Origin: Leptospiraceae bacterium
Lineage (GTDB): Bacteria > Spirochaetota > Leptospiria > Leptospirales > Leptospiraceae
NCBI GenBank assembly: GCA_024233875.1
Contig: JACKPB010000009.1
Coordinates: 21,191-85,190, forward strand
Reading direction: 5' to 3'
Length of the DNA stretch: 64,000 bases
Shown: piece by piece, positions 34,980 through 35,643 of the stretch
Numbering within the stretch: position 1 is the stretch's first letter
How the letters are laid out: each line of letters opens with the position of its first letter
Translations under genes and position numbers: made by a program
The notes under the pieces: model-generated
Databases searched by the model: none
What the model was told of the DNA's origin: nothing
What the model saw: only the letters and a program-made list of their open reading frames with translations

Positions 34980-35015
34980 TGATAGCTTTCCGGGATAAAA
35001 TTTCTTAATTTATAG

Positions 35016-35117
35016 TCATTTTCAATAGTATTTTCGCATTCACTGAAGAAACTTCTATAAAATGCCTACATACCTTACGAAGAAATGTGCAAGTATTTCT
35101 GAAAACCGGTATCCAGA
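35016..35117. repeat. Repeat unit 1 of the roughly 105-bp intergenic repeat family (diverged copy)
   Basis: Shares the TCATTTTCAA…CGCATTCACTG…AAATGCCTAC…AGAAATGTGCAAGTATTTCTGAAAACCGGTAT blocks with units 2, 3 and A. Confidence 0.55.
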
Positions 35118-35225
35118 CATTTTCAAAAAGATCTACGTTTGCACTATTGAATCAGCAGTCAAATGGCTACCTACCAAAATAGAAAAACGCAATCTTTTCA
35201 GAGAACTGGAGTATATAAAATATTT
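35118..35225. repeat. Repeat unit 2 of the roughly 105-bp intergenic repeat family (closest to copy A at 23243..23350)
   Basis: Aligns at about 80 percent identity with 23243..23350. Confidence 0.6.
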
Positions 35226-35444
35226 GAATCCTTTCTATTTCAAATACAATATTTTTACAAAAATATATTTATTTCCCGGTAAGTAATCTATTATCTTCCC
35301 AGATTAGATGTTTCTTTCAATATCCGGCTTTTTATTCCCACCCGACCTGTCTTGATTTCTCAAATGAGCTGGATCTTTATCAAAATCCTTTGCACGAGCA
35401 AAGTGAGTGCGTGAGGTGAGGATGGGGGATTCAAAGAAAAATCG

Positions 35445-35515
35445 ACAATAAAATGGCTAGATACCATCAGATGAAATGCACAAGTATATCTGAAAACCGG
35501 TATATGTAAGATTTG
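35445..35515. repeat. Partial repeat unit 3 (3' half of the family unit)
   Basis: CAATAAAATGGCTAGATACCATCAGATGAAATGCACAAGTATATCTGAAAACCGGTAT against unit 1 CTATAAAATGCCTACATACCTTACGAAGAAATGTGCAAGTATTTCTGAAAACCGGTAT. Confidence 0.55.
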
Positions 35516-35643
35516 AATGAATTGTGATTTGATTGTTTGCGTTGGAAGAAATGCTTTTATTTTTCCAGAAAAATCATTTTATGAATGAAATGGATGATCC
35601 TTAAAAAGAAAGGATGCGGTGGATTGCATCCTTTCTGAAGTAC

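Follow-up and report, generated by a model that had tools for sequence, protein, structure and literature searches.

What is the repeated DNA that fills the gap between a beta-lactamase-family gene and an AurF-like diiron gene in an uncultured Leptospiraceae bacterium, and how did it come to be there? We analyzed a 64,000-nt stretch of contig JACKPB010000009.1 (called the window below). A preliminary description of this stretch had reported a repeat of roughly 105 bp in the gap, and offered as possible explanations a small structured RNA, an element resembling a miniature inverted-repeat transposable element (MITE), and a shared regulatory module. We found that the repeat is a dispersed family of non-coding intergenic units with inverted ends. 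We suggest that it is a lineage-restricted repeat of the MITE, ERIC or Correia kind that was spread in trans and is now fixed, possibly giving its neighbours promoter or operator sequence. We hold this composite reading with about even confidence. It is the best of the readings considered, and a regulatory module and a small RNA (sRNA) family are less likely rivals.

A degenerate pattern based on the shared blocks matched five places in the window, against none in 100 dinucleotide-preserving shuffles. An nhmmer search with the family profile returned the same five places (E = 1e-16 to 1e-24) and nothing further in the 64 kb. The five copies are the following.

35011..35112, plus strand: 35a, full copy, first tandem unit (nhmmer E = 6e-24; pattern match 35060-35109; included in alignment A5).
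35113..35217, plus strand: 35b, full copy, second tandem unit (nhmmer E = 1.5e-20; pattern match 35161-35209).
35429..35506, plus strand: 35c, 5'-truncated copy (nhmmer E = 3e-16, profile positions 27-113; pattern match 35451-35500).
23238..23342, plus strand: 23k, full copy (nhmmer E = 8.5e-24; pattern match 23287-23336).
8407..8510, minus strand: 8k, full copy (nhmmer E = 1.1e-23; three inverted-repeat matches).

The first three copies share a gap of 664 to 665 nt, and the genes that flank this 35k array are as follows.

33240-34979, minus strand: beta-lactamase-family gene.
35644-36759, minus strand: AurF-like diiron gene.

Copies 35a and 35b abut head to tail with zero spacer, and their junction reads GGTAT followed directly by CCAGACATTTTC. 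The first 30 or so nt of 35c, its 5' inverted-repeat arm, are gone, and the central and 3' blocks are kept. The pattern and the profile thus bear out the two head-to-tail copies and one partial copy that had been seen in this gap, with coordinates that agree within a few bases. The fourth copy previously placed at 23243..23350, at about 80% identity, is real (23238-23342), but it is 79% identical to 35b only and 63 to 68% identical to the other copies. With 8k, which had been overlooked, the count in the window rises from four to five. 23k lies in a 705-nt gap between a 138-aa open reading frame (ORF) of unknown function (22371-22787, minus strand) and an ankyrin-repeat gene (23493-24125, minus strand), and it is antisense to both. 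8k lies in a 254-nt gap between FapA (8579-10198, minus strand) and an SDR gene (7581-8324, minus strand), and is the sole copy oriented like its flanking genes.

The repeat is not confined to the locus where it was first seen. Our sample of this genome comprised about 74 kb, namely the window plus 10 kb past its right end, and the profile found a sixth copy about 2.8 kb past that end (L091 14341-14448, minus strand), between a Toluene_X-family gene and a cation-efflux gene. Several Logan/ENA metagenome assemblies contain this species, and their arrangement is identical. A relative, known from a single 13-kb JGI contig (L090), encodes the most similar AurF protein found (82% identical). Six clear copies and another three that are degenerate are spread over four gaps of this contig, on a single strand. 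Copies therefore occupy four separate loci within the roughly 74 kb sampled from this species, plus four gaps along the 13-kb L090 contig. All of them are intergenic, within unusually long gaps (254 to 857 nt).

How far does the family reach? The profile had no match at the loci of other relatives with 62 to 80% AurF identity (L009-L023, L077, L089, L094-L101 and L116; about 350 kb by a tally of locus lengths). The strict pattern was made to fit this species and would overlook the diverged L090 copies; it drew a blank in 185,579 species-representative genomes, which do not include this species and whose closest AurF proteins are 78 to 80% identical. In JGI metagenomes the strict pattern, which would again miss L090-like copies, gave one chance match, inside a coding region. 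Plasmids and phages gave no blastn match to the repeat, and a cross-species pattern run on viral contigs gave two matches, both due to chance. As sampled, the family is restricted to two uncultured Leptospiraceae species. The G+C content of L090 is 27%, versus 37.5% for the window, and relatives of intermediate G+C content and similar AurF identity are without the family.

The copies are well diverged. Identity is 61 to 79% within this species, 55 to 78% within L090 and 47 to 68% between the two. In this species the copies form two subfamilies, one of 8k, 35a and 35c and the other of 23k and 35b. The tandem units 35a and 35b are 61 to 63% identical, whereas 35a is 76 to 87% identical to 8k, and 35b is 70 to 79% identical to 23k. 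Therefore, each tandem unit is closer to a copy 12 to 27 kb away than to its neighbour. The pair is not a recent local duplication, because 35a and 35b each resemble distant copies more than one another. This subfamily split and the distant copies rule out the local duplication that had been kept as a fallback. Purely local duplication, or chance resemblance in A+T-rich intergenic DNA, could point to the low-complexity A/T runs among the conserved blocks. It could also point to Tandem Repeats Finder, which reported no array of about 100-nt period in the window; the program missed 35a and 35b because the two units share so little identity. Such an origin does not fit the five pattern matches against none in the shuffles, the nhmmer E values down to 1e-24, the four loci here with four more gaps in another species, or tandem neighbours that are less alike than distant copies. 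We consider it already refuted.

The site of 8k offers a comparison with relatives. Two of them are syntenic over the FapA-SDR-FAD-oxidase block. The FapA-SDR gap, 254 nt with its copy here, is 192 and 99 nt in these relatives, and nhmmer found no copy in either gap.

We next describe the anatomy of the unit, which is 102 to 112 bp long. Alignment A5 contains 12 copies, nine of them full. Its consensus runs TTATAG-TCATTTTCAAAAGTATTTGC, about 27 variable nt, ATAAAATGGCTA-(G/C)ATACC, about 8 nt, GAAA-N4-CAA, and (G)TATTT(C/A)TGA(A/G)AA(C/T)TGGTATAT. The ends of the unit form imperfect inverted repeats, each about 25 nt long, with TATAGTCATTTTCAAAAGTATTTGC as the 5' arm and ATATACCAGTTTTCAGAAATACTTGC as the reverse complement of the 3' arm. 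These arms begin at the conserved edges, and TATA stands at both edges in most copies. When columns 17-38 were set against columns 82-102, 70.6% of cells were paired over the 12 copies, against 37 to 50% with the partner slid. There are two further inverted relations. The 5' tip TAGTCATTTT pairs with the centre AAAATGGCTA in 79.8% of cells (32 to 50% with the partner slid), and ATACC pairs with the 3' tip GGTAT in 75% (17 to 52% with the partner slid). The central block, AAAATGGCTA-GATACC, is an inverted image of both tips, TAGTCATTTT and GGTAT. Therefore, its reverse complement, GGTATCTAGCCATTTT, resembles the head-to-tail junction GGTATCCAGACATTTT.

The unit also occurs in a few recurrent forms. 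The 5' arm is missing in three copies (35c, L090b and L090f), all of which break near one column of the alignment. Units abut head to tail with no spacer in three places: 35a/35b, L090e/f and a degenerate copy beside L090a. The unit has three TAG(T/C)CATTTT motifs, one forward and two reversed, and the pseudo-palindrome TCATTTTCAAAAGTA is among the conserved blocks. The flanks of the copies share nothing else by blastn. By eye, the consensus sequences of sigma-54, LexA boxes, parS, dif and IHF do not fit the blocks. A search for the 10-nt tip motif gave 24 one-mismatch matches where 17 +/- 4.5 would be expected, and the elements themselves account for the surplus.

Does the unit encode a protein? 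One ORF had been called across the tandem pair.

35062..35286, plus strand: spurious 74-codon ORF, starting at the central-block ATG of 35a.

This ORF reads 35b in a frame other than that of 35a, because the offset between the units is 101 nt. It has no Pfam match, and the gene callers left it uncalled on seven metagenome contigs of the locus. Over the 12 aligned copies, the ATG-initiated ORFs vary from 4 to 74 codons. We therefore agree with the preliminary description that 35062..35286 is not protein-coding, and also that indels break any shared reading frame, which shifts after codon 4 to 10. A family of small proteins or leader peptides, starting at the conserved ATG of AAAATGGCTA (Met-Ala-Arg/Thr/Ser-Tyr...), would account for an ATG kept at the same column in 10 of the 12 copies and for first four codons that are similar between copies. 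Yet the ATG is absent from the other two copies, we read no Shine-Dalgarno sequence before it, and such a family would have to tolerate the variable ORF length, the early loss of frame, the second unit read in a different frame, and the missing Pfam match and gene calls. A peptide gene is effectively excluded and close to refuted. The family exposes two more doubtful calls in L090. A 49-codon ORF over a degenerate repeat copy (L090 6928-7077, minus strand) is probably spurious. An RNase H-like gene (L090 99-1001, minus strand) was probably called about 40 codons too long, with a start too far upstream; its product has 300 aa, compared with 243 to 262 aa in homologues, and the extension overlaps copy L090f.

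Is the unit a structured RNA, as the preliminary description had considered? Rfam gave no match at gathering score in the whole window, and in the gap of the 35k array it gave chance-level matches only, none relevant, at E values up to 10. RNAalifold produced a long stem from five copies and zero consensus pairs from all twelve. Covariation was not above that of shuffles in any of four helices, in tests whose power, like that of the consensus fold, is limited by the 12 copies. The observed score was reached by 82 of 500 shuffles for the terminal arms, 45 of 500 for the tip-centre helix, 320 of 500 for ATACC/GGTAT and 134 of 500 for a local hairpin. The pairing in the helices is accounted for by conservation of both arms. 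The terminal-arm and tip-centre helices would be mutually pseudoknotted, and individual copies fold in different ways: 8k, 35a and L090e through the tip-centre and ATACC/GGTAT pairings, and 23k, 35b, L090c and L090d through the long stem. Folding z-scores span -3.85 to +0.87 for the forward strand and -3.11 to +0.42 for the reverse, and five of the nine full copies fold no better than shuffles. Terminator scans found no intrinsic terminator inside the unit or consistently after it. With no Rfam family, consensus fold, covariation or terminator, and with folds that differ between copies, the structured-RNA option is not supported.

A broader proposal is an sRNA gene family or a cis-acting RNA, in which a forward-strand transcript would act via conserved single-stranded blocks, like LhrC or Qrr. 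On the forward strand the folds of some copies are far more stable than those of shuffles (z = -3.85 for 8k, -3.83 for 23k and -2.63 for 35b), this strand folds better than the reverse on average, and the helices contain 26 G-U pairs against 15 A-C mismatches. A relaxed scan placed TTGCnn-17/18-TAnAAA just before the conserved ATGGCTA in five of the nine full copies, and a bidirectional terminator-like site lies about 120 nt after 23k. These features would suit a transcript, but they have to be set against the blank Rfam, RNAalifold and covariation results, the pseudoknotted helices, the two subfamilies that fold differently, the five full copies at shuffle level and the lack of a regular terminator. 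Moreover, the inverted repeats are equally well explained at the DNA level. From the sequence alone, we judge an sRNA family or cis-acting RNA quite improbable.

Could the unit instead act as DNA on the genes beside it? The element is antisense to the genes in six of the seven co-directional gaps, 8k being the exception. By our own calculation this orientation bias has a two-sided p of about 0.13 and is suggestive only. In five gaps, the 5' arm lies close to the next start codon, at 32 nt (beta-lactamase-family gene), about 34 nt (L090 HMA gene), and 62, 84 and 91 nt (other L090 gaps). In the other two gaps the distances are 183 and 451 nt. The 32 nt are counted from the 5' edge of 35a to the beta-lactamase-family start codon (34979, minus strand). 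Two terminator-like hairpins lie in the same gap.

35607..35637, minus strand: terminator-like hairpin of the AurF-like gene (AGAAAGGATGC/GCATCCTTTCT, then TTTT on the minus strand; read from sequence).
35388..35403, minus strand: terminator-like hairpin in a G+C-rich stretch (terminator scan).

The first hairpin, about 100 nt from 35c, was missed by the consensus scan because only four T follow the stem. Since the AurF-like gene has this terminator-like hairpin, the beta-lactamase-family gene needs its own promoter in the repeat-filled gap. The G+C-rich stretch (35380-35425, AAGTGAGTGCGTGAGGTGAGG) occupies the place of the missing 5' part of 35c. It has a weak Rfam match to Chlorobi-1 (E = 0.1). 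We also tried it as a second repeat, because by eye it resembles L091 14030-14060; blastn found nothing significant.

Promoter signals in the unit are faint. Standard scans for sigma-70 promoters and terminators were at chance level, and a relaxed position-wise scan found no convincing promoter common to the copies. Among promoter-like matches in the relaxed scan, the most recurrent is a reverse-strand TATAAN hexamer at the 5' edge, present in six of the nine full copies; its -35 partners are poor.

The AurF locus can be compared between the two species. In both, a truncated copy lies 85 to 140 nt from the AurF stop and is followed by full copies, and the gene downstream differs. This arrangement may be inherited. 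Among the relatives, only the TetR-AurF pair is syntenic at this locus, and the gene downstream of AurF differs in every one. The pair itself (TetR-family and AurF-like genes, 35644-37383, minus strand) is conserved across Leptospiraceae relatives (L009-L014, L089, L100 and L116), and AurF homologues with 52 to 56% identity are widespread in Myxococcota.

These data bear on the idea of a shared cis-regulatory module, in which the blocks would be putative sites for one regulator or nucleoid-associated protein and would have been duplicated into promoter regions. The sites would be TAG(T/C)CATTTT and TCATTTTCAAAAGTA, and the TATA-ended 5' arm would serve as the -10 box of a divergently placed gene. 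Such a module would agree with the conservation of the 5' block, which is higher than elsewhere in the unit when full copies of the two species are compared (57 to 87% identical, mostly at least 70%, against 47 to 68% for the rest). It would also agree with the antisense orientation, which makes the 5' arm face a start codon at 32 to 91 nt in five gaps, with the TATAAN hexamer, with the promoter implied for the beta-lactamase-family gene, and with the similar array next to AurF in both species. However, the neighbours have no obvious common function (beta-lactamase-family, SDR, ankyrin, cation efflux, HMA, response-regulator kinase and RNase H-like), and there is no excess of solo motifs outside the elements. 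The -35 partners are weak and the promoter scans at chance, 8k is oppositely oriented, 23k is about 450 nt from the nearest start codon, and the orientation bias is not significant alone. We regard a regulatory module as unlikely. Its strongest form, that the repeat is a working clade-specific control element in which a single host protein, or else RNA transcribed from the unit, reads the three TAG(T/C)CATTTT motifs and co-ordinates the genes faced by the 5' arm, is a tentative and rather doubtful proposal. It would explain why the truncated-then-full layout beside AurF recurs in both species.

The MITE-like reading is the best supported of those considered. The family has inverted ends, small size, no coding capacity and dispersed copies at non-orthologous sites. 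The preliminary description, which named a MITE-like element among its options, is supported in part. Its view of the repeat as non-coding holds, the inverted ends, the dispersal, the empty orthologous site and the tandem of mixed subfamilies fit a MITE-like element best, and the structured RNA found no support. We infer that the family was once mobile in trans. In this scenario, a trans-acting factor would have spread copies to separate intergenic sites. Some copies would have landed beside existing ones to give head-to-tail arrays, and some would have been 5'-truncated. The copies in this species would by now be fixed and old, as their mutual identity of 61 to 79% suggests. Any present effect would probably be in cis, on transcription of the neighbours, which is the weaker part of the proposal. 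The copies occupy long gaps on the promoter side of genes and are mostly antisense to them. In five of seven gaps the TATA-ended 5' arm stands 32 to 91 nt from a start codon, so it may provide an operator or a -10-like box. Donation of promoters to the neighbours is speculative.

Several observations weigh against a MITE-like element. No target-site duplication can be defined, because the edge TATA is palindromic and conserved and could be element sequence. The window genes include no transposase, a weak test given the roughly 74 kb of this genome that were covered. No autonomous element with these ends was found, and no extra profile match appeared in about 1.3 Mb of 88 loci plus further loci. 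The three exact head-to-tail abutments are unusual for classical MITEs. The 8k gap (254 nt) and the gap of the 35k array (665 nt) are constant in every spanning contig, in a comparison of 10 and 7 places from different metagenome samples (about 10 samples of this species), so neither is polymorphic for presence or absence among these contigs. The six copies sampled are old, sharing 79% identity at most, and recent mobility is unsupported. Finally, the array by AurF is laid out alike in both species, and inheritance with selection would fit a host function no less than a relic; likewise, a conserved protein-binding site would also predict the higher conservation of the 5' block. We call the family MITE-like rather than a proven MITE, because the TATA edges define no duplication and the searches turned up neither an autonomous partner nor an insertion polymorphism.

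What does the family mean for this genome? Most likely it is the relic of a small mobile element, a family new in sequence and ordinary in kind, found in two uncultured Leptospiraceae species so far. One more family is of modest interest, since such small dispersed repeats are common and, by a published account, Leptospirales are rich in them. It explains several unusually long intergenic gaps, and it unmasks the spurious ORF calls described above. It may also be why some contigs of this species break in metagenome assemblies. One contig (L004) breaks off at the 3' edge of 35c, 129 nt past the AurF stop, and another (L111) begins 27 nt from 8k and 56 nt upstream of the SDR gene. These ends may come from assemblies that broke at a multicopy repeat. 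Were the cis-regulatory reading correct, the repeat would be rewiring promoters in an uncultured lineage of Leptospiraceae, and it would be a handle for finding its binding protein.

Some other features of the window were noted. After the ankyrin-repeat gene, 23462-23482 forms a hairpin with an 8-bp stem and T runs on both strands, and is terminator-like in both directions. The ankyrin-repeat protein (23493-24125, minus strand) has a hydrophobic stretch at its start. Near 23k, 24377-26101 (minus strand) encodes a Ser/Thr protein kinase with an Lcl_C domain at its C terminus, so that two eukaryote-like domains, kinase and ankyrin repeat, stand beside this locus. Directly downstream of the beta-lactamase-family gene, 30771-33236 (minus strand) encodes an 821-aa protein that resembles the major vault protein, with Pfam matches to MVP_shoulder, Vault_3 and, weakly, Band_7. 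At the left end, a 400-aa cNMP-binding ORF (55-1257, plus strand) was read from a GTG start. No such protein is on record in the collection searched, and the true start is therefore probably elsewhere.

Which known repeats does the family resemble? The Correia elements of Neisseria (CREE or NEMIS) are non-coding intergenic units of about 100 to 155 bp with imperfect terminal inverted repeats of about 26 nt. They have TA-rich termini and many dispersed copies, and they donate promoters to their neighbours. Our repeat is like them in size, non-coding nature, intergenic location, imperfect inverted ends, TA-rich termini and dispersal. Unlike them, it has no demonstrable TA duplication, its copies are far more diverged (47 to 79%), and some are in exact head-to-tail arrays or 5'-truncated; the two share no sequence similarity. 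The ERIC (or IRU) sequences of enterobacteria are imperfect intergenic palindromes of about 127 bp, with blocks common to species at non-orthologous sites. Their function is debated, and they have no known transposase. The repeat shares with them the imperfect palindromic intergenic unit, the blocks shared across species and the non-orthologous sites. It differs in belonging to another phylum, in its unrelated sequence, in its restriction to two species and in its tandem units.

Among pneumococcal elements, BOX and RUP are likewise non-coding, intergenic and able to fold. BOX, from Streptococcus pneumoniae, is also modular, built from A, B and C modules in variable number, and the repeat has full units, units without the 5' part, and arrays; its modules are not shuffled in number in the way of BOX. 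RUP comes with both a TA duplication and a clear partner of the IS630 type, neither of which could be demonstrated for the repeat. We also considered REP or BIME elements with their RAYT and set them aside, because the unit is about 105 bp long, the arrays run head to tail instead of alternating, and the window genes include no Y1 transposase. The multicopy sRNA families LhrC, Qrr and PrrF are similar in that their units measure about 100 nt, contain conserved blocks and occur both in tandem and dispersed. Each of their units has its own promoter and Rho-independent terminator and they have one fold, whereas in the repeat we found no terminator, common fold or covariation. The closest parallel by taxonomy is in the host's own order. 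A survey reports Leptospirales to be unusually MITE-rich, with about 154 conserved MITEs per genome, mainly intergenic (PMC11602168). Our repeat shares with these the bacterial order and the intergenic location.

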